A DNA stretch of 64,000 nucleotides from Armatimonadota bacterium (GTDB lineage: Bacteria > Vulcanimicrobiota > JACPDS01 > JBDRKI01). Positions 4,336-57,917 of the stretch are shown here, piece by piece. The notes under the pieces were generated by a model. The model did no database searches. It was not told the origin of the DNA and saw only the letters and a program-made list of their open reading frames with translations. The DNA lies in assembly GCA_043814095.1 (NCBI GenBank), contig JBDRKI010000075.1:424-64423 (forward strand), given 5' to 3'. Position 1 is the first letter of the stretch; every line of letters starts with the position of its first letter. The translations under genes and the position numbers were made by a program.

Positions 4336-6045
4336 ATGAACGATATTATTAAACATGATGTTGTTATTATAGGTGGCGGTCTCGCGGGCATGAGAGCCGC
4401 TCTTGAGATATGCGACAATCATGATGTGGCAATTATATCAAAAGTGCACCCGGTAAGATCACATTCCGGCGCGGCGCAGGGCGGAATAGCCGCATCTCTG
4501 GGCAACGTGGCCGATGATGACTGGGAAAAACATATGTTTGACACGGTAAAGGGGAGTGATTATCTCGGAGACCAGGATGCAATAGAGATACTTGTTAAAG
4601 AAGCTCCCCAGAATATTATAGAGCTTGAACATATGGGTACGCCCTTTTCAAGAACCGAGAACGGCAGAATCGCGCAAAGGCCCTTCGGCGGACATTCCTC
4701 TCCCAGAGCCTGCTATGCGGCCGACTTAACAGGGCATGTAATACTCCATACATTATACGAGCAGATTATAAAGAAGAAAATAAAAGTATATTCCGAATTC
4801 TATGTGCTGGATATCATACTTAAAGACAATATCTGCCGCGGCCTTATAGGTTTTGACCTTACAACAGGCACCATACACACATTCCATTCAAAAGCCGTAA
4901 TGTTCGCAACAGGCGGTTACGGAAGAGCATTTAAAATAACCTCAAACGCGCACGCCAATACCGGAGACGGGTTAAGCATAATTTACAACCAGAGCCTCCC
5001 CATCCAGGATATGGAATTCGTGCAGTTCCACCCCACGGGATTATGGAAGCAGGGAATTCTCGTAACAGAAGGCGCGCGAGGCGAAGGCGGATACCTCTTA
5101 AACAAAGACGGCGAGCGGTTCATGAAGCGCTACGCGCCAAACATGATGGAAATAGCTCCCAGGGATGTAGTATCGCGCGCGATCCAGACAGAGATAAATG
5201 AAGGAAGGGGCATAGACGGAAAAGATTACGTGCATCTTGACCTGCGCCACTTAGGAAAAGAAAAAATTATGAAGCTCCTGCCCCAGATAAGAGAGCTTGC
5301 GATGGATTTTGTCGGAGTAGACTGCATTGAAGGCCCGATACCCATCCAGCCCACAGCCCATTATTCCATGGGGGGGATACCCGTAAATATAGACGGAAAC
5401 GTCATATCGGACGAAAAAGGAACTCTTATTACAGGATTATACGCCGCGGGAGAATGTTCGTGCGTGTCCGTTCACGGCGCGAACAGGCTGGGATGCAATT
5501 CCCTGCTTGAAGCAGTCGTATACGGAAGGCGTACCGGCAAATACATAAATGAATTTTTGCAAGACGCTAAATTAGAACTTCTTCCCGAAGAGGCTGACAA
5601 AAAAGTGCAGGATAAAATATCAAAACTTCTAAGCAGTGAAGGAACAGAGCTCCCTGCGAAAATACGCGAAGAACTGCAGGAAGTCATGTTCAAAAAATGC
5701 GGTGTTTACAGAAACGAAGACGACTTAAAAGACTGCCTGCAGGCGGTTAAAAAGCTTCAGGAAAGATTCAAAAAAGTCAAGATTGACGACAGAAGCAAGC
5801 TCTATAACACGGACTTAATTGAAACAATAGAACTCAGCCATCTTCTTGATTTCTCCGAAGTAATAGCAGCAGGCGCCCTGGCAAGAACAGAATCCCGGGG
5901 AGGCCACTCAAGAGTGGACTTCCCAAAAAGAGACGACGCGAACTGGCTGAAACATACCTTCGCGTATAAAACAGAAACAGGGCTGAAATTTACATATAAA
6001 GATGTAGCAATAACAAAATTCCAGCCGCAGGAAAGAAAGTATTAG
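4336..6045 (+). CDS. sdhA: Succinate dehydrogenase flavoprotein subunit
   Basis: FAD-binding GGGLAG motif, covalent-FAD His region ([11 protein letters not shown]), conserved HPTG and catalytic regions. 569 aa. Confidence 0.9.
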
Positions 6046-15571: not shown

Positions 15572-17161
15572 ATGCGTAATAAACAATACGAGGATATCAT
15601 ACAATCAAATCCAATATTTTATTCTCTGGATAAGGAAATAGTAGCGGAACTTGCTTCCCAGCTCGAAGAAAAGCATTTCAACCCGGATGATATCATCGTA
15701 AAAGAAGGAGACATGGGTGACAGCTTCTACCTTATATTATCCGGCCACGTTTCGGTCCTTAAGCACGATGATAAAAACGAAGAACTTTTAATGGCACAGC
15801 TGGGCCCCGGTGACGGGTTCGGGGAGATGTCCTTATTCTTTGACCAGCCCAGATCCGCAACCATAAAGGCCGCGGATGAAGTCACCGCGCTTGAACTTAA
15901 AAGAACAGCATTTAAAGACCTTATAGAGAAATACCCCCAGATGAACATACAGATATCCCGGCTTATTGAATCACGCGTGTCCCTGCTTGATTCGGCCGAT
16001 CAGATATCAAAAGATAAATTCCGGGCAAGAAGCACTTTAAAGATAGACCTGCCTCTTTTAGACCTGCTTTCAAAATTCAACCTAGCCGCGGGCGGCTCTC
16101 CCCAGGTGCGCAACGCCAGAGAGACAGCTATCCTGGCGGACGAGATGAGTAAAATGCTCTGCCCTATGGTAAGCGATCAAATTACATGCGCGGCATATCT
16201 TTATGAGATAGGAAAGCTTTCCTTAAGCGAAGGGCTGATAAATAAACACAGAAAGCGCTTTCCTTTAACGGAAGAAGAAGAAGAAAAAATCAAGAATATC
16301 TATGAGATAGCATTAAATATACTTGAACCGTTTAAATCTTTAAAAGAAAACATACAGTTTATAAAATACCTGACGAAACAGAACTATACCGATATGCCGC
16401 TTGAAGCGCAGATACTGAAAGTGGCTATTGATTTCCAGGAAATGATAAATACCGAATACCAGAACATACCTAAAAACGAGGCGTTAAAGCGCTTAAAAAA
16501 TAAAGGCGGCACATTATATAATCCCAAAGTAATTATCGCCCTTGAAAAAGTACTGGACAAATTCGTAAAGGTAGGCGTGGAAAACCAGCTTAACTTTTTA
16601 AAGTCCATGAACATAGCTCTGGACTACAAAGACCATTACACACTCAGCCACTCCATGCATACCAGGGATATGGCTCTTAAAATAGCGCAAAAAATGATGC
16701 TGAGCAGGAAAGAATCTGATATGCTTAAGCTTTCAAGCGAACTGCACGATATCGGTAAAATATACATAAAAGACGAAATACTGAACGCCCCCAGAAAACT
16801 TACGGAACTGGAATTTGATATAATGAAGCAGCATCCCGTATGGTCCGCGGCGTTTTTCGCGGAAATACCGGGAATGGAAGAACTTACAACAATCATACGC
16901 CACCATCACGAAAAATACGACGGCTCGGGATATCCGGACAGGTTAAAAGGCGATGAGATACCGCTGCTTTCAAGAATAATGGCTCTTGCCGATGTATACA
17001 GCGCGCTTACGACCGAGCGAGTATACAGGCTGGACATGAGGGGCAAAAAACTCGCCTATGATCCGGAAAAAGCCCTGGAGATCATGGAAAAAATGCAGCC
17101 GGGACAGTTTGACCCTGAATTATTCAAGATATTTAAGGAGATTATCCTTGAAGAAAAATAA
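15572..17161 (+). CDS. Cyclic-nucleotide-binding domain protein fused to an HD-GYP phosphodiesterase domain
   Basis: N-terminal cNMP-binding motifs (GDGFGEMSLF…PRSATIKA). C-terminal HD-GYP signature (HSMHTRDMA…ELHDIGKIYI…HHHEKYDGSGYPDRLKGDEIPLLSRIMALADVYSALT). Confidence 0.8.
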   Translation: MRNKQYEDIIQSNPIFYSLDKEIVAELASQLEEKHFNPDDIIVKEGDMGDSFYLILSGHVSVLKHDDKNEELLMAQLGPGDGFGEMSLFFDQPRSATIKAADEVTALELKRTAFKDLIEKYPQMNIQISRLIESRVSLLDSADQISKDKFRARSTLKIDLPLLDLLSKFNLAAGGSPQVRNARETAILADEMSKMLCPMVSDQITCAAYLYEIGKLSLSEGLINKHRKRFPLTEEEEEKIKNIYEIALNILEPFKSLKENIQFIKYLTKQNYTDMPLEAQILKVAIDFQEMINTEYQNIPKNEALKRLKNKGGTLYNPKVIIALEKVLDKFVKVGVENQLNFLKSMNIALDYKDHYTLSHSMHTRDMALKIAQKMMLSRKESDMLKLSSELHDIGKIYIKDEILNAPRKLTELEFDIMKQHPVWSAAFFAEIPGMEELTTIIRHHHEKYDGSGYPDRLKGDEIPLLSRIMALADVYSALTTERVYRLDMRGKKLAYDPEKALEIMEKMQPGQFDPELFKIFKEIILEEK

Positions 17162-17972
17162 AGCTAACTTAAGTTTATCAACCTGGGATTATTTATACCT
17201 GCCGCCTTTTAAAGCGTTGGATAAAATATCTTCCATGGGGTTTGATTCGGTTGAATTATGGGGAGATTATCCCCATTTCTGGCCCAGGAAGTATCTGATT
17301 AAAGACAATCTTCAGAAACTAAAAAACAAACTAAAAAAATTCACGGGGCTTAATTCCGTACATGCCCCCATAGTAAGACTTACAAGCAAAAACGCGGGCC
17401 TGCGTGAAGAAGCCATTAAGCAAGTAAAGGAAACCATACTGCTGGCCGGAAAGCTCGGCATAAAATACATAACGCTGCACGGCGGAGAAAAGCCTTTTAA
17501 TATGCAGAACTGCAACTTCACCGGGCAAACATACAATTTATTCATCAATGACCTTAAAAAACTAGGGATTCTGGCCGGCAGAAAAAGCGTAATCCTTTGC
17601 CTTGAAAATATACCCGGAGAATTCGGTTTTGAAGCTCATGAGATGAAAAAACTTTTAAGCAGGGTTAACTCTAAAGGGGTCTGCATGACTCTTGATATAG
17701 GGCATGCCAATCTCGCGGGAGGCGATAAAGTGTTTGAATTTTTCAAACTATTAAAGAATAAAATAAGAGTGATGCATATAAATGATAATGACGGATCCGG
17801 AGACGATCACCTGGCGATAGGGTCCGGAAACATAAAATTCTGCGAGTTTTTCAATAAATTCGGCAAGGATTTGGAAAACAAAGTGCTTGTTGGAGAGCTT
17901 GCATATAATAAAAAGAACCCCGAAAAACCGATACTCGGATTTATTAATTTTATGAAAAATTTCACCGCATAA
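17058..17972 (+). CDS. Sugar phosphate isomerase/epimerase (xylose-isomerase-like TIM barrel) family protein
   Basis: Motifs such as GFDSVELW, KYITLHGG and TLDIGHAN. The track ORF start overlaps the previous gene, so the real start is probably internal (first ATG at 17235; a conserved LSLSTWD lies upstream of it). Confidence 0.7.
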   Translation: MIRKKPWRSWKKCSRDSLTLNYSRYLRRLSLKKNKANLSLSTWDYLYLPPFKALDKISSMGFDSVELWGDYPHFWPRKYLIKDNLQKLKNKLKKFTGLNSVHAPIVRLTSKNAGLREEAIKQVKETILLAGKLGIKYITLHGGEKPFNMQNCNFTGQTYNLFINDLKKLGILAGRKSVILCLENIPGEFGFEAHEMKKLLSRVNSKGVCMTLDIGHANLAGGDKVFEFFKLLKNKIRVMHINDNDGSGDDHLAIGSGNIKFCEFFNKFGKDLENKVLVGELAYNKKNPEKPILGFINFMKNFTA

Positions 17973-22861: not shown

Positions 22862-22941
22862 AAAATACTCCTTTTGGTAGCATTTTTCACTAAAAATTAC
22901 CCCACTTGACCTATATCCGTATACGCGGGGGGGGGTATAAT
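22862..22941 (+). promoter_or_regulatory. Conserved promoter module for family copy 1: AAAATACTCCTTTTGG motif, TTGACC box, G9 tract, TATAAT
   Basis: Motif 22862-22877, TTGACC 22906-22911, poly-G 22927-22935 (9 G), TATAAT 22936-22941. The same module lies upstream of the 25082 and 39879 genes. The 57595(-) copy keeps only the poly-G tract and TATAAT. Confidence 0.45.
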
Positions 22942-23033: not shown

Positions 23034-23507
23034 GTGAAAAAACTACTTATAGCGCTTGTAGCGATAGCATTTCTGACAACAGCGGCATTTGCCGGGTCAA
23101 CTGACACACAGACTGTGTATTATGAGATTGATGCAATTAATGAACTTGTTTTTGGCGATGATACAACCTTAACAATGGACACTGCAACTGCAGGGGATGA
23201 ACCTTTTCACGATTTCAAATATCCTACCTATAACATTACTACTAACGAAGCTGCTAAAAAATTAACTGCTTCAATTAACGCAACAATGCCGAATCGTGTA
23301 TACTTCAGAGTAAAGGCAGAAGCACCAACCGGCGCTAGCAGTACCGGCTTACAATATATGAACACAACTGCCAAAAATCTTGTAACCGGTATTGAAACCG
23401 TAGTAGAGTCCGGTATAACTTATACCTTAAATACCTATGCATATGCTGATGCCGGTCTACCGCCTGATGGTTCAAGAGTCATAACCTTCACATTATGTGA
23501 CGAATAA
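23034..23507 (+). CDS. Small secreted protein, variable-core family copy 1 (157 aa)
   Basis: GTG start after a GGAGG RBS. Sec signal with AFA|GS cleavage site. Conserved STDTQTVYYEIDAINE N-terminus and LPPDGSRVITFTLCDE C-terminus shared with three paralogs. Divergent middle. Confidence 0.7.
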   Translation: MKKLLIALVAIAFLTTAAFAGSTDTQTVYYEIDAINELVFGDDTTLTMDTATAGDEPFHDFKYPTYNITTNEAAKKLTASINATMPNRVYFRVKAEAPTGASSTGLQYMNTTAKNLVTGIETVVESGITYTLNTYAYADAGLPPDGSRVITFTLCDE

Positions 23508-23533: not shown

Positions 23534-23560
23534 AAGCATACTCATGCGGTATGCTTTTTT
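23534..23560. terminator. Rho-independent terminator (AAGCATAC-loop-GTATGCTT plus T-run), bidirectional, shared with the convergent ATPase gene
   Basis: Perfect 8-bp stem followed by TTTTTT. An A-run precedes it on the other strand. Confidence 0.6.
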
Positions 23561-24816
23561 ATATCCTGTGCCGCGGCAAAAATCTCCCACGGATATAAAG
23601 ATTTAATTCTTTCATCTTCGCCGGAAGATAGTTTTTGCAGGGATATAACCCAGGCATCTTTCTGTTTGTATTTATCTATAAATGAGATGAGTGTTGACAG
23701 TGATTTTTGCGGATACGAAAGTTTGGCTTCTGCCGGGATTTTCTTAAAATTAAGATCCGCGATAAAATCTATCTCCGTTTTCTGTTTAGTCCTCCAGTAT
23801 TTTACAATCTCTTTTCCTAATGCCGAACGGATTGCGCAGTAAACAGCGTTTTCAAACAGCTCCCCGCTTACTTTATCCAGAAAAACGCCGTATTTTAAAA
23901 GATTGGCTATGCCTGTATCCTCAAAAAATATTTTAGACATTTTCGATATCTCGCTTCTTATATTCGTATAAAACGGCGGTACCATCTTTATAATGTAAGT
24001 GTTTTCCATAATAAAAAGATATTCTTCTATTGTCGGCCTTGATATCCCTATGGTAGAAGAAAGCTCCAGAACATTTAACAAAGATCCTGTTTTATCCGCC
24101 AAAACCCGGAGAAGTTTATTAAATCGGTTAACATCCCGTATATGACCTAAATCTCTTATATCTTTCTTAACATATGTATTTATAACTTGTTTAAGATATG
24201 TTTCTTTTGCATCGATAGATTTTTCAAGCACAATTTTGGGATACCCGCCGTAAATTAGGTACTCCTTAAAAAGACCGGACAGCTCCTTATTAACGGTTTC
24301 AGACTGAAAGGCTTTGAAAGATGACAGATCGTAATTAATTTCTTTAAACACCAGAAACTCTTCAAAATCCAGAGGATAAAGTTCGAAGTCTACGGTTCTT
24401 CCTGCCAGGGAATCTTTAAATTTACTTTTTACCTGAAAACTGGATGATCCGGAAACGATAATCTTCAACCATTCGTAATGATCGTGGAGTATTTTAAGAA
24501 GCGGGGATGGGTTATCCAGATATTGAATTTCATCTATCAGTATGTAAATTTTATTGTTTTTGTCTATATTCTTATGACTTTCAATATAGCTAACGACTTC
24601 TTTATGTCCCTTATTAAACATTTCTAAGAAAGTAAAATCTTCCAGATCAAAATAAAAAATATTATCAGGCAGAACTCCTTTCTCATTTATAAGCTTATCC
24701 CTTATAATTTTTAATAAAGTAGTTTTTCCCGTCTGCCTGGCGCCATGAATAACCAGAATCTCTCCTTTTTTCAAAAACTTATCGATAGGCTTTAATAATT
24801 TTCTCGGCTTATACAT
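23542..24816 (-). CDS. AAA+ superfamily ATPase, COG1373 / DUF4143-type
   Basis: Walker A (HGARQTGKTTLL), Walker B (ILIDEIQYL), about 420 aa with a C-terminal DUF4143-like region. Paralogs at 44101 and 55711. Confidence 0.8.
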   Translation of the reverse strand: MYKPRKLLKPIDKFLKKGEILVIHGARQTGKTTLLKIIRDKLINEKGVLPDNIFYFDLEDFTFLEMFNKGHKEVVSYIESHKNIDKNNKIYILIDEIQYLDNPSPLLKILHDHYEWLKIIVSGSSSFQVKSKFKDSLAGRTVDFELYPLDFEEFLVFKEINYDLSSFKAFQSETVNKELSGLFKEYLIYGGYPKIVLEKSIDAKETYLKQVINTYVKKDIRDLGHIRDVNRFNKLLRVLADKTGSLLNVLELSSTIGISRPTIEEYLFIMENTYIIKMVPPFYTNIRSEISKMSKIFFEDTGIANLLKYGVFLDKVSGELFENAVYCAIRSALGKEIVKYWRTKQKTEIDFIADLNFKKIPAEAKLSYPQKSLSTLISFIDKYKQKDAWVISLQKLSSGEDERIKSLYPWEIFAAAQDIKKHTA

Positions 24817-24906: not shown

Positions 24907-24988
24907 AAAATACTCCTTTTGACCTATGGTTTTAGTCGAAAATTGCCCCACTTGACCTATATCCGTATACGCGGGGGGGGGGTATAAT
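24907..24988 (+). promoter_or_regulatory. Conserved promoter module for family copy 2 (motif, TTGACC, G10 tract, TATAAT)
   Basis: Motif 24907-24924, TTGACC 24952-24957, poly-G 24973-24982 (10 G), TATAAT 24983-24988. Confidence 0.45.
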
Positions 24989-25081: not shown

Positions 25082-25564
25082 GTGAAAAAACTACTGATAG
25101 CACTTGTAGTAATAGTATTTCTAGCAGGAGCGGCATTTGCGGCATCAACAGATACCCAGACTGTGTATTATGAGATTGACGCGATAAATGAAATTGATCT
25201 TGATGTGGGTAGCTTAACATTAACAGTTGATTCAGTAGCACAAGCTGGATATCAGCCGGCTTCGGATGTTACCGATTGGATGTTATATGGTATTACAACT
25301 AATTCCACGGGTAAAAAAATAACCGGTTCAATTAATGCAAATGTACCAAGTAATTGTCAGTTGGAGGTTCTTTTGGAAGCCCCTAGCAATGCTGTTTCTA
25401 CGGGATTGAAAAATTTATATTTTCAAGCGACAAATTTAGTAACCAGTATTGAAACGGTTGCAGAAGGAGATGTTAGGTATCGTTTCTATTGGCACGCAAA
25501 TGTTGAAGCCGGTCTCCCCCCAGACGGCTCAAGAGTCGTAACCTACACATTAACGGATGAATAA
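25082..25564 (+). CDS. Small secreted protein, variable-core family copy 2 (160 aa)
   Basis: GTG start, GGAGG RBS. Same conserved termini (…STDTQTVYYEIDAINE… / …LPPDGSRVVTYTLTDE). Confidence 0.7.
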   Translation: MKKLLIALVVIVFLAGAAFAASTDTQTVYYEIDAINEIDLDVGSLTLTVDSVAQAGYQPASDVTDWMLYGITTNSTGKKITGSINANVPSNCQLEVLLEAPSNAVSTGLKNLYFQATNLVTSIETVAEGDVRYRFYWHANVEAGLPPDGSRVVTYTLTDE

Positions 25565-25621: not shown

Positions 25622-25981
25622 CTTTCTTTTCTGGTGGAGGTGGAGGGATTCGAACCCTCGTCCGAAAAGGTCCCCACAGAGATTCTACAAGCTTATTCCA
25701 GATTTTGTTTCTCGGCGCCCCGGCTCCTCTGAACAGGATCCGCAGAACCCAGCCCCTTTAATTTCCCGCTTAGATAAGAGGCGGTTTCAAAACGGTAAGC
25801 CATCCTATTTTGGCGCCCTTATTTAGGCCGGCTGGCGGACCTAAGAGGACGTAGCCGCGTTAAGCGGCTAGTGCTAATTCGTTATCAGCGTTTATTTGTT
25901 TTCTAACTTTTTAACGAGCTGTCAGCAACTCGGCCTGCTGCCTCTGCCAAAACACATCCCGTCGAAACCTTGTCACCCCCC
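25622..25981 (-). ncRNA. ssrA: tmRNA (transfer-messenger RNA, SsrA)
   Basis: Minus-strand 5' end GGGGGTGACAAGGTTTCGACGGG. 3' end GGTTCGAATCCCTCCACCTCCACCA (T-arm plus CCA). Internal tag reading frame GCT GAT AAC GAA TTA GCA CTA GCC GCT TAA gives (A)ADNELALAA*. smpB lies 1.6 kb away. Confidence 0.8.
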
Positions 25982-39699: not shown

Positions 39700-39786
39700 G
39701 GTCAAAAATACTCCTTTTGACCCATAGTTTTAGCCGAAAATTACCCCATTTGACCTATATCCGTAAATGCACGGGGGGGGTATAAT
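39700..39786 (+). promoter_or_regulatory. Conserved promoter module for family copy 3 (palindromic GGTCAAAAATACTCCTTTTGACC, TTGACC, G8 tract, TATAAT)
   Basis: Motif 39700-39722, TTGACC 39750-39755, poly-G 39773-39780 (8 G), TATAAT 39781-39786. Confidence 0.45.
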
Positions 39787-39878: not shown

Positions 39879-40337
39879 GTGAAAAAACTACTGATAGCAC
39901 TTGTAGCAATTGTCTTTCTAGCAGGAGCGGCATTTGCAGGGTCAACAGATACTCAGACAATTTACTATGAGATTGATGCAATTAATGAGATTAGCTTTGA
40001 TACAAATATAACAATGACGGTTAATGCCGCAACAGCCGGTTCACAGCCAGCAGAAGTAAGTGTATGTTCTCTCGAATATAACATTACTACCAATGAAACC
40101 GGCAAGAAATTAACAGGCCAGCTTAATGCGAATATGCCGGGTAACACTACTCTTAAGGTTAATGTAGACGGCGGTGAAGTCGCATTATCAACCACCGCAA
40201 ATAATCTATACACTAATATTTCAACCATGGTAACAGCAGGCGACTGGTATTACAGCTTCTCTTTTCGAGCAACAGTCGCAGCCGGTCTCCCCCCAGACGG
40301 CTCAAGAGTCGTAACCTACACATTAACGGATGAATAA
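39879..40337 (+). CDS. Small secreted protein, variable-core family copy 3 (152 aa)
   Basis: GTG start, GGAGG RBS. Conserved termini (STDTQTIYYEIDAINE / LPPDGSRVVTYTLTDE). Confidence 0.7.
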   Translation: MKKLLIALVAIVFLAGAAFAGSTDTQTIYYEIDAINEISFDTNITMTVNAATAGSQPAEVSVCSLEYNITTNETGKKLTGQLNANMPGNTTLKVNVDGGEVALSTTANNLYTNISTMVTAGDWYYSFSFRATVAAGLPPDGSRVVTYTLTDE

Positions 40338-54949: not shown

Positions 54950-55714
54950 ATGGCAAAAATTAAAATAAAAAACAGAACAATTGATATTGACGCGGTAATC
55001 TTTGATAAAGACGGGACATTAATTGAAATATTTCCCATGCTTCACGCCGTATTAAAAGAAAGAATCAAAGAACTGCTTAAATTTATTCCAAAAAAAATAA
55101 TACCTGACTACAAAAAAGGCGTGGGCATAAACCTTAAAACAGGCACGATAAACCCCTACGGCCCGCTCGCGTGCGCCCCGCGCCATGAAGAGATAATTGT
55201 CTGCGCCCAGATACTCTTCCGGCACGGATACCCCTACCATGAAGCAAGAAATATCGCGAAAAAAGCATATGATAAAGCGGATTTCGGGATGGATCTTAAA
55301 AAGGGGCTTAAAATTATACCCGGAGCTGACAAACTTCTCAAAGAACTTAAAAAGAAGAAAATAAAGATATTTATTGTTACAAGCGATTCGGTATGCAGGA
55401 CAAACAAAATGTTAAAAATCCTGAATCTGTCAAAATACATTGATCATGTAGTTGGCTCCGATTCTGTCCAAAACTGCAAACCCGAGCCCGACGCGGTAAA
55501 TTTCATCTTGAAAAAATACAACTTAAAACCGGATAAGGTCGCCATGTGCGGGGATTCCGTTATAGATATGCAGATGGGTAAAAACGCAAAGGTAAGATAT
55601 AATATAGCGGTATTAACAGGTACCAGCACTAAAAAAGAACTGAAAAAATATACAGGTTTTGTGTTAAGCTCCGTAAAGGAATTAAAACTGCCGCTACCTA
55701 TCCATTATTCTTGA
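54950..55714 (+). CDS. HAD-superfamily hydrolase (phosphoglycolate phosphatase-like)
   Basis: Motif I (AVIFDKDGTL), motif III/IV (…GDSVIDMQMG…). 254 aa. Confidence 0.7.
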   Translation: MAKIKIKNRTIDIDAVIFDKDGTLIEIFPMLHAVLKERIKELLKFIPKKIIPDYKKGVGINLKTGTINPYGPLACAPRHEEIIVCAQILFRHGYPYHEARNIAKKAYDKADFGMDLKKGLKIIPGADKLLKELKKKKIKIFIVTSDSVCRTNKMLKILNLSKYIDHVVGSDSVQNCKPEPDAVNFILKKYNLKPDKVAMCGDSVIDMQMGKNAKVRYNIAVLTGTSTKKELKKYTGFVLSSVKELKLPLPIHYS

Positions 55715-56880
55715 CAAATCCTGTTTTTTGTATTAAAATTGGGAGTATGAATCCCAAAATTAAGTATATTAAGCGCGATTTAGAGCCAATATTAAAATCG
55801 CATCTCAACAAGGGTAAAATTATTGTTTTATACGGTGCCCGTCAGGTCGGTAAAACCACACTTTTGCTAAATCTTTTTCCCGAAAAAGAGGAAAAAACAA
55901 TTTATCTTTCCTGCGATCAGAGCCGCATCCAAGAACAACTAATACCCGATGCTTTACAGTTAAAGAAAATAATCGGTAATCATCAAAATATAATTTTTGA
56001 TGAAGCGCAGTATTTAAACAATCCGGGACTTATTTTAAAAGTTCTAATAGACAATTTTCCGGATAGAAATATAATTGCCTCGGGCTCATCTTCTTTTGAC
56101 CTGGCGCATAAAATAAGCGAACCGCTTACGGGAAGGCATTTTAAATTCATTCTTTTTCCTTTATCTGTGCGGGAGATATATAAAGAAATTCCGGCTACAG
56201 ACAGGAAATTTTACATGGAACAATCTTTTTTGTTCGGCACATATCCTGAGATTTTCATGCTTATCACCGCGCAAGAGAAAATAACGCATTTACAGACGCT
56301 TGTCGACGCCTATCTTTACAGGGACATCCTTGCTTTTAATCTCGTAAAAAATACTCAAAAAGTAAGAGAACTAATCCTGTCATTGGCTTTGCAAATAGGC
56401 AGTGAGGTTTCCTATTCAGAACTGGCAAATCATATAAGTGTTGACAGAAAAACTGTTGAGCATTATCTGGATCTTCTTGAGAAATCCTTCGTCATTTTCA
56501 GGTTATACGGTTTTAGCCGAAATTTGCGAAGCGAAATTAACAGAAAAATTAAAATATATTTCTATGACACGGGAGTGAGAAACGCTCTTATAAATAATTT
56601 TAATGAGATGGATTTACGCACCGACGGCGGCGCTATTTTTGAAAATTTTGTAGTTTCAGAAAAAATAAAACAAGAAACAAATGCTCCTCAAAAAACAAAT
56701 TTTTATTTCTGGCGCACTTATGACCAGAAAGAAGTTGACATTATTTCCGAGAAAAACGGGGTAATTATCGCCGGAGAAATTAAGCTTAAAAAAACAAAAA
56801 AAATGCCCGGACTTTCAGCTTTTAAAAGGCAATACCCGCAGGCAAAAACAGAATTAATAACAATGGATTCTTTGCTGTGA
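55711..56880 (+). CDS. AAA+ superfamily ATPase, COG1373 / DUF4143-type (paralog)
   Basis: Walker A YGARQVGKTTLL, Walker B IIFDEAQYL. 389 aa. Confidence 0.8.
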   Translation: MTNPVFCIKIGSMNPKIKYIKRDLEPILKSHLNKGKIIVLYGARQVGKTTLLLNLFPEKEEKTIYLSCDQSRIQEQLIPDALQLKKIIGNHQNIIFDEAQYLNNPGLILKVLIDNFPDRNIIASGSSSFDLAHKISEPLTGRHFKFILFPLSVREIYKEIPATDRKFYMEQSFLFGTYPEIFMLITAQEKITHLQTLVDAYLYRDILAFNLVKNTQKVRELILSLALQIGSEVSYSELANHISVDRKTVEHYLDLLEKSFVIFRLYGFSRNLRSEINRKIKIYFYDTGVRNALINNFNEMDLRTDGGAIFENFVVSEKIKQETNAPQKTNFYFWRTYDQKEVDIISEKNGVIIAGEIKLKKTKKMPGLSAFKRQYPQAKTELITMDSLL

Positions 56881-57030
56881 CATACTTACGGGGTTAAAAT
56901 CCCATGCGTTTTATGATGTGCGAGTTTCTTGATTCAACGACACCCAACTCGCAGATCGCTCCAAGCATATTTGGAACCTTCCGTTCTGTGAAGGGAACAG
57001 TTTATATGATTAACGGGATAGATTAATAAA

Positions 57031-57062
57031 AACCTTATTCGTTTCAACGAATAAGGTTTTAT
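57031..57062. terminator. Bidirectional terminator hairpin (AACCTTATTCG-TTTCAA-CGAATAAGGTT)
   Basis: Perfect 11-bp stem with a T-run on the plus strand and an A-run on the minus strand. Confidence 0.5.
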
Positions 57063-57120
57063 GCTATCAATATTCTTGACCGTAGGGGCGGGTCGCGACC
57101 TGCCCTACATGCTATTTCAT

Positions 57121-57595
57121 TTATTCATCCGTCAGGGTGAAGGTTATGACTCTTGAGCCGTCCGGCGAAAGACCGGCTTCGACAATAGCACTTAAATAAA
57201 TGGTATAATATGATTCTGCTGCATTTGTTTCAATGCTGGTTATTGCGCTTTGAGCGGTGGTATTTAAAGTTACTATGCCGGGGCAAGAACAGCCACTCGG
57301 TGCAGACAAATACACCTTAAGAGTTACTCCGCTTGGCATAGTTGAATTAATTGCCGCAGTTATTTTTTTTTGCTGTTCCGTTTGTGGTAAGATAGTAATC
57401 TTGCACGCCTGTGCTATCACCGGCCGGTCCCGTACCAGCCCCTCCATGATCAATTGTTAAGGTTACATCCGCGCCAAATGCAATCTCATTAATCGCATCT
57501 ATTTCATAATAGATTGTCTGGGTATCTGTTGATGCCGCAAATGCTACCGCTGTTAGAAATGCTATAGCTACAAGTGCTATAAGTAGTTTTTTCAC
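57121..57595 (-). pseudogene. Small secreted protein family copy 4, frameshifted within an A9 homopolymer
   Basis: Two overlapping minus-strand ORFs (57347-57595 and 57121-57453). They carry the family N-terminus (…STDTQTIYYEIDAINE…) and C-terminus (…SPDGSRVITFTLTDE) respectively. The junction is an A9 tract (plus-strand T9 at 57372-57380). With A8 the frame would read …TAKKITAAINSTMPSG…, as in the paralogs (KKITGSIN / KKLTASIN). Confidence 0.7.
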
Positions 57596-57686
57596 GGTAG
57601 TTAACCTCCTTTCTTGTTGTTTTATTTAATGGCTTTTTGCCATGAAATATCAGTTATAAAAAACCTTGTTTCCTCTTCCCACCTAT

Positions 57687-57701
57687 ATTATACCCCCCCC
57701 C
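57687..57701 (-). promoter_or_regulatory. TATAAT preceded by a G9 tract (minus strand): promoter of family copy 4
   Basis: Plus-strand ATTATA then C9 (57693-57701). The reverse complement gives G9-TATAAT-ATAGGTGGGAAGAGGAAACAAGG…, the same as the other copies. The region upstream of it has diverged. Confidence 0.4.

Positions 57702-57838: not shown

Positions 57839-57917
<79 letters not shown>

Follow-up and report, generated by a model that had tools for sequence, protein, structure and literature searches.

A split gene and its A9 run

We analyzed a 64-kb stretch of DNA (the window) from one NCBI metagenome-assembled genome (MAG; 'Armatimonadota bacterium', locus tags beginning with ABIH00_). 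By tblastn, exactly four copies of one gene family were found in the window: c1, c2 and c3 are intact, and copy 4 is frameshifted (Table 1). Copy 4 spans 475 nt on the minus strand (57121-57595), a length that leaves a remainder of 1 when divided by three, and as assembled it is covered by two ORFs that overlap at positions 57347-57453. Signal peptide and conserved TDTQTIYYEIDAINEI segment both lie within the N-terminal ORF, which has about 45 more residues and terminates with the tail ...KKNNCGN. Its sequence is family-like up to ...YYLTTNGTAKK, and the other frame is family-like from ITAAINSTMP to the terminal TFTLTDE. Since the family match switches frame between TAKK and ITAAINSTMP, the indel is located inside the A9 run, which is the sole long homopolymer within the gene.

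Deletion of one A from this run gave a product of 157 aa (...TAKKITAAINSTMPSGVTLKV...TFTLTDE) that was collinear with the three intact paralogs. Addition of two As (A11) likewise restored the frame, with one extra Lys. No second lesion was detected in copy 4, and the single-base correction yielded a complete family ORF. These data agree with the first-pass annotation of this DNA, which had described a minus-strand gene at 57121-57595 split into two overlapping ORFs, had located an A run within a conserved motif (the site is in the KK(I/L)T motif of the family), and had proposed that A8 restores both the frame and the match to the paralogs. It had also placed the A9 run at 57372-57380; the run is real, and its actual position is nine bases lower.

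Table 1. Positions of the family copies, their promoter tracts and other features of the copy 4 locus
Feature	Position	Strand	Description
Copy 4 gene, frameshifted	57121..57595	-	With A8, a predicted secreted pilin-like protein of 157 aa; family HMM 216 bits
N-terminal ORF as assembled	57347..57595	-	82 aa; GTG start at 57595; ends ...TAKKNNCGN, stop
Second ORF, other frame	57121..57453	-	110 aa; stop at 57121
C-terminal family-like stretch, other frame	57121..57362	-	80 codons and stop; ITAAINSTMP...TFTLTDE, stop; intact
A9 run, frameshift site	57363..57371	-	T9 on the plus strand; within codons GCA AAA AAA (A)ATA
Paralog c1, ABIH00_07795	23034..23507	+	Intact, 157 aa; A6, GCT AAA AAA TTA at 23253-23264
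Paralog c2, ABIH00_07805	25082..25564	+	Intact, 160 aa; A7, GGT AAA AAA ATA at 25310-25321
Paralog c3, ABIH00_07880	39879..40337	+	Intact, 152 aa; interrupted AAGAAA, GGC AAG AAA TTA at 40101-40112
Copy 4 promoter G9 tract	57693..57701	-	C9 on the plus strand; adjoins the -10 hexamer
c1 promoter G9 tract	22927..22935	+	
c2 promoter G10 tract	24973..24982	+	
c3 promoter G8 tract	39773..39780	+	
Copy 4 TATAAT	57687..57692	-	Perfect -10 consensus, invariant in 4/4 copies; putative function
Copy 4 conserved leader	57596..57686	-	About 90 nt; small hairpin at 57629-57643, GGAGG at 57605-57609
Terminator-like hairpin with T-rich run, 3' of copy 4	57022..57070	-	From folding; not listed by the consensus scan

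A large family of putative pilin-like proteins

The product of these genes is characterized by a signal peptide, a very conserved TDTQT(V/I)YYEIDAINE segment, a TTNE(T)(A/G)KK(I/L)T motif and a conserved C-terminus with a TLTDE end. Searches of Pfam, NCBIfam and PDB sequences with the protein gave no family match. A profile search, on the other hand, returned 1,686 cluster representatives (clusters at 50% identity), and the family is large, widespread and uncharacterized. In an AF2 model of the protein (pLDDT 78), a beta-sandwich core was predicted with a score of about 90, and the N-terminal 60 residues had low scores and were poorly placed. The best PDB matches of this model in Foldseek were pilins of the chaperone-usher type (CfaB, CS17, FimA, CupB6, Csu) and another donor-strand fiber protein, TasA, all of them marginal (E of about 1e-3, TM 0.4-0.47). 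It is reasonable to infer that the family comprises pilin-like subunits of surface fibers. No chaperone or usher genes were detected beside the four window copies.

A scan of GTDB species representatives detected family relatives at 37-46% identity only, in Longimicrobium and Verrucomicrobia, so that the MAG itself is not one of these representatives. One relative, P0018, which is 40% identical, is located in a conserved operon (L031, 2600-10305) behind a response-regulator gene. Several paralogous small secreted proteins are encoded there, along with a pair of about 280 aa and one of 939 aa with putative Ig-like or CarboxypepD_reg-like domains, and the domain matches in the operon (WxLIP_PGBD, CarboxypepD_reg) were sub-threshold only. 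It may represent an uncharacterized fiber-assembly locus.

Paralogs and their promoter regions

At least 19 paralogs are scattered in the same MAG, with a divergence of roughly 40%. Three of the proteins on other contigs are annotated as truncated, namely P0071 (ABIH00_05110, 109 aa), P0017 (ABIH00_10715, 109 aa) and P0014 (ABIH00_01240, 146 aa); broken copies may thus be common in this family. Within the window, the paralogs had been said to carry A7 or A6 at the site of the A9 run. This is correct for c2 and c1, respectively, and does not apply to c3, in which the run is interrupted (AAGAAA).

Two of the window copies, c1 and copy 4, are each convergent with a gene directly downstream that encodes an ATPase with AAA_14 and DUF4143 domains (23542-24816, minus strand, and 55711-56880, plus strand). 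This shared neighbor may reflect either a duplicated two-gene module or a functional link. It was also observed that c2 adjoins the tmRNA gene (25632-25980, minus strand) and that copy 4 adjoins a tRNA-Pro(CGG) gene (57839-57917, plus strand); tmRNA and tRNA genes are typical hotspots of integration or recombination.

A promoter G tract had been assigned to copy 4 by the first-pass annotation, and we found it as a G9 run. In all four window copies such a tract lies immediately 5' of an invariant TATAAT, in upstream regions that are otherwise highly conserved, and no G/C run of eight or more occurs anywhere else in the window. Next in length is a G7 run (5370-5376, plus strand) inside an intact ORF of 569 aa (4336-6045). 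The leader of about 90 nt, with its small hairpin and GGAGG, is likewise common to the four copies, and it had no match in Rfam. The hairpin shows changes that preserve pairing (TGGT/ACCA in c3, TGGC/GCCA in copy 4 and TGGT/GCCA in c1).

A TTGACC element is present 24-25 nt upstream of TATAAT in c1-c3. We considered whether TTGACC might be the -35 partner of TATAAT in a standard sigma-70 promoter and rejected this reading, as the spacing is too long. Copy 4 lacks the upstream block that contains TTGACC, and it also lacks a 3' block common to c1-c3, so that it may be a weaker or degenerating copy. The place of this 30-nt 3' block, just past the copy 4 stop codon, is taken by a GC-rich hairpin (GTAGGGCAGG...CCCGCCCCTAC, 57078-57112, minus strand).

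The promoter organization of the family resembles that of the Bordetella fim promoters, which have a C-stretch between the activator box and the -10 element (PMC1891110). Like fim2, fim3 and fimX, the window copies are scattered paralogous pilin-type genes with their own promoters, in which the tract length varies between copies (PMC1891110): the tracts of c1, c2, c3 and copy 4 are G9, G10, G8 and G9, and TTGACC precedes the first three and is absent from the fourth. It should be noted that this parallel concerns the promoter tract of the family and not the A9 run, that there is no sequence homology between the two systems, and that the host is an uncultured member of the Armatimonadota.

Codon usage and the length of A/T runs

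Codon usage was taken from 39 long CDSs in the window, 16,869 codons in total, and expected run counts from 500 synonymous-codon shuffles. In this set, 77% of Lys codons are AAA, 59% of Lys-Lys pairs are written AAAAAA, and GCA accounts for 21% of Ala codons. The in-frame A8 version of the copy 4 site, GCA AAA AAA ATA (Ala-Lys-Lys-Ile), is the longest run possible for these four residues, and from codon usage alone an A8 is expected at the AKKI motif about 12% of the time. Thus, the tract owes its existence solely to a conserved Ala-Lys-Lys-Ile being encoded as GCA-AAA-AAA-ATA, in line with the preference of this genome for AAA. In distant relatives (30 loci, including low-GC ones), the two lysines are encoded by AAA-AAG or AAG-AAG. 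The tract is neither longer nor more conserved than codon usage predicts, and the A6, A7 and AAGAAA versions of the paralogs, together with the AAG codons of the relatives, give no sign that a long run is being maintained. Nothing suggests that the A9 tract is a purpose-built switch, and codon usage accounts for its origin.

The distribution of A/T runs in the CDSs followed the expectation up to a length of eight and then stopped. Runs of seven were observed 48 times (40.7 expected) and runs of eight 11 times (11.6 expected), whereas no run of nine or more was observed where 9.3 were expected (minimum 4). In addition, none of the 16 Lys-Lys-Lys triplets in the 39 long CDSs was written AAAAAAAAA. 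The CDSs of the window therefore avoid A/T runs of nine or more, and across the 64 kb only the A9 run of copy 4 reaches this length. Baranov et al. (PMC1088944) described selection against slippage-prone A/T runs that can be seen in many bacteria from nine bases on, and the run-length spectrum of the window fits this pattern.

We also compared the two halves of copy 4 with the family using leave-one-out HMMs. The restored copy 4 scored 216 bits and the paralogs 218-255 bits, and the ratio of the C-half to the N-half score was 0.78 in copy 4, with a range of 0.62-0.99 among the paralogs. Both halves of copy 4 scored within the family range, and we therefore rejected the view that decay has already set in within the out-of-frame C-terminal half. 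The lack of extra decay in this half suggests that the shift is recent relative to the divergence of about 40% between paralogs, or else that this half is still expressed.

Nature of the frameshift

The first-pass annotation had offered two explanations of the split gene, a second, translational phase-variation switch or a homopolymer sequencing error. This pair of options is incomplete, in that it omits a simple, recent loss of function (or a nascent pseudogene) in one member of a redundant family. The explanation that we favor, to which we assign roughly an even chance of being correct, is that copy 4 has acquired a genuine and recent A8 to A9 slipped-strand mutation at an incidental run, which leaves one member of a redundant family with a mostly silent allele. 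Slipped-strand mispairing in the A8 derived from codon usage could have expanded the run by one base. The resulting allele would truncate the protein after 82 residues and leave copy 4 mostly silent in the sampled population. As there are at least 19 paralogs in the MAG, the loss of a single copy should have only a small cost. The lesion alone is a routine homopolymer frameshift and a new instance of a well-known event. The more interesting object is the pilin-like family that bears the G tracts, with about 1,700 clusters at 50% identity and at least 19 scattered copies in one environmental genome.

This explanation presumes that the extra A is present in the DNA and not only in the assembly. 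It is conceivable, though unlikely, that the gene is in fact intact, with an A8 run, and that the extra A came from homopolymer miscalling or from the collapse of a mixed population. The source is a MAG, the consensus of which may hide a mixed population. Moreover, the A9 run is the longest A/T homopolymer in the window, where length errors concentrate, and the rest of the copy 4 gene is intact. However, the frame is kept at all 11 of the eight-base A/T runs in other CDSs, which marks the assembly as not error-prone at homopolymers; there is no other split gene in the window; and the abrupt lack of CDS runs of at least nine bases speaks for homopolymers having been called accurately. These indirect data, with a run spectrum that stops cleanly at eight, favor a careful assembly. 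When the window was scanned for further split genes associated with homopolymers, nothing but fusions of neighboring genes came up. The pair that looked most suspect (15572-17161 and 17058-17972) consists of two separate genes, for an HD-domain protein and a xylose-isomerase-like protein. As for other alleles of copy 4, a flank-anchored pattern with a variable gap had no match in JGI metagenomes, a family scan of the same metagenomes detected distant relatives only, and both the A8 and the A11 products were absent from a collection of 15 billion proteins.

If the A9 allele is genuine, it need not be completely silent. The earlier statement was that the copy is OFF either way; "mostly off" fits our data, and fully OFF is too strong, because A9 belongs to the slippage-prone length class and runs of nine or more are avoided in the CDSs. 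The run is located precisely at the junction of the two frames, and its length reaches the threshold of about nine or more A/T for slippage (PMC1088944); A9/T9 is the length class in which bacterial RNA polymerases slip efficiently (PMC1088944). By analogy, RNA polymerase slipping on A9 could produce some A8 (or A11) transcripts and hence some full-length protein, and expression of copy 4 is probably leaky in this way. The reading ...AKKITAAIN... would likewise result if tRNA-Lys slipped by +1 on the ribosome at this run. Reversion by the same slippage that produced the lesion is possible in principle, as the lesion lies in a run of nine bases, and by comparison with known tracts copy 4 may well be reversible. 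With a recent mutation at an incidental run, the site would turn on and off by accident and at a low rate, within a redundant family of surface proteins, and would not be a dedicated second switch.

A dedicated switch, that is, a selected translational phase-variation tract on top of the promoter G tract, would provide two-tier on/off control like that of sabA in Helicobacter pylori, and we consider it quite unlikely. As in translational phase variation, the length of the repeat decides the product, which is full length with A8 or A11 and truncated with A9. The family is multi-copy, its members bear signal peptides and are pilin-like, and their promoter G tracts of 8, 9, 9 and 10 are embedded in conserved sequence. 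There is also precedent for both elements. In sabA, a promoter poly-T tract is combined with a coding CT repeat, and copy 4 likewise has a promoter homopolymer and a slippage-prone repeat in the coding sequence (PMC2715451). A8 and A9 tracts are able to act as contingency loci, as in Vibrio cholerae O1, where the A8 of wbeL and the A9 of manA are coding slippage hotspots, with reversion shown for manA (PMC3441752). These genes and copy 4 share an A run of 8-9 bases in a gene for a surface structure, in which single-base slippage truncates the product (PMC3441752). However, the V. cholerae tracts are conserved across strains and their switching was shown experimentally under phage selection (PMC3441752), whereas copy 4 is represented by one assembled allele, and its tract is not conserved among paralogs and is explained by codon usage. 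Similarly, the sabA repeats are long (T13-19 and (CT)n) and polymorphic within a strain, unlike the short run of copy 4 (PMC2715451).

The codon-usage data above point in the same direction: they account for the length of the tract, the tract is not kept among the paralogs (A6, A7, AAGAAA), and the relatives interrupt the run with AAG. In general, poly-A tracts of 8-9 are much less mutable than G tracts, which also counts against a selected switch. If A8/A9 heterogeneity of copy 4 were nevertheless real, it would amount to two-level, slippage-based surface variation in a free-living, non-pathogenic lineage, in which phages rather than immune systems would be the likely selective agent.

It is very unlikely that the A9 run serves programmed transcriptional slippage, in which, as with dnaX of Thermus or tssM1 of Citrobacter, the 82-aa product and the full-length protein would be made in a fixed ratio. 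In favor of this reading, nine As are a canonical length for slippage (PMC1088944; PMC4256274), such runs are avoided elsewhere in the CDSs, and the short product would retain the N-terminal segment that is most conserved as well as the signal peptide. In Thermus thermophilus, the alternative product arising from the A9 run of dnaX amounts to about 50%, and transcriptional slippage is also required for Shigella mxiE (PMC1088944); in Citrobacter, the A11 run of tssM1 allows rescue of a frameshift by transcriptional slippage (PMC4256274). As in dnaX and tssM1, copy 4 has an A/T run at a frame junction, and the full-length product needs a transcript run that differs from the template (PMC1088944, PMC4256274). 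However, the out-of-frame arrangement of dnaX, mxiE and tssM1 is conserved and experimentally shown, whereas copy 4 is a single copy among in-frame paralogs: the KK site is in frame in the three window paralogs and in the paralog proteins that extend beyond it, including the truncated P0017 and P0071, and no conserved out-of-frame arrangement is seen among them. The short product, with only a 5-residue out-of-frame tail, shows no sign of selection either. It is extremely unlikely that A9 is a functional recoding site, at which slippage of RNA polymerase yields from a single gene both the full-length subunit and an 82-residue product that retains the signal peptide and the highly conserved N-terminal (putative donor-strand) segment. 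Such a short product could cap or end fiber growth, and the site would add graded control to the putative promoter G-tract switch in an uncultured member of the Armatimonadota.

One practical point concerns annotation. The 82-aa fragment has been deposited with an identical sequence as MFH1453900.1 (ABIH00_07970, 'hypothetical protein'), with no pseudogene or frameshift flag. It is thus listed as a normal protein and should be flagged as the product of a frameshifted gene.
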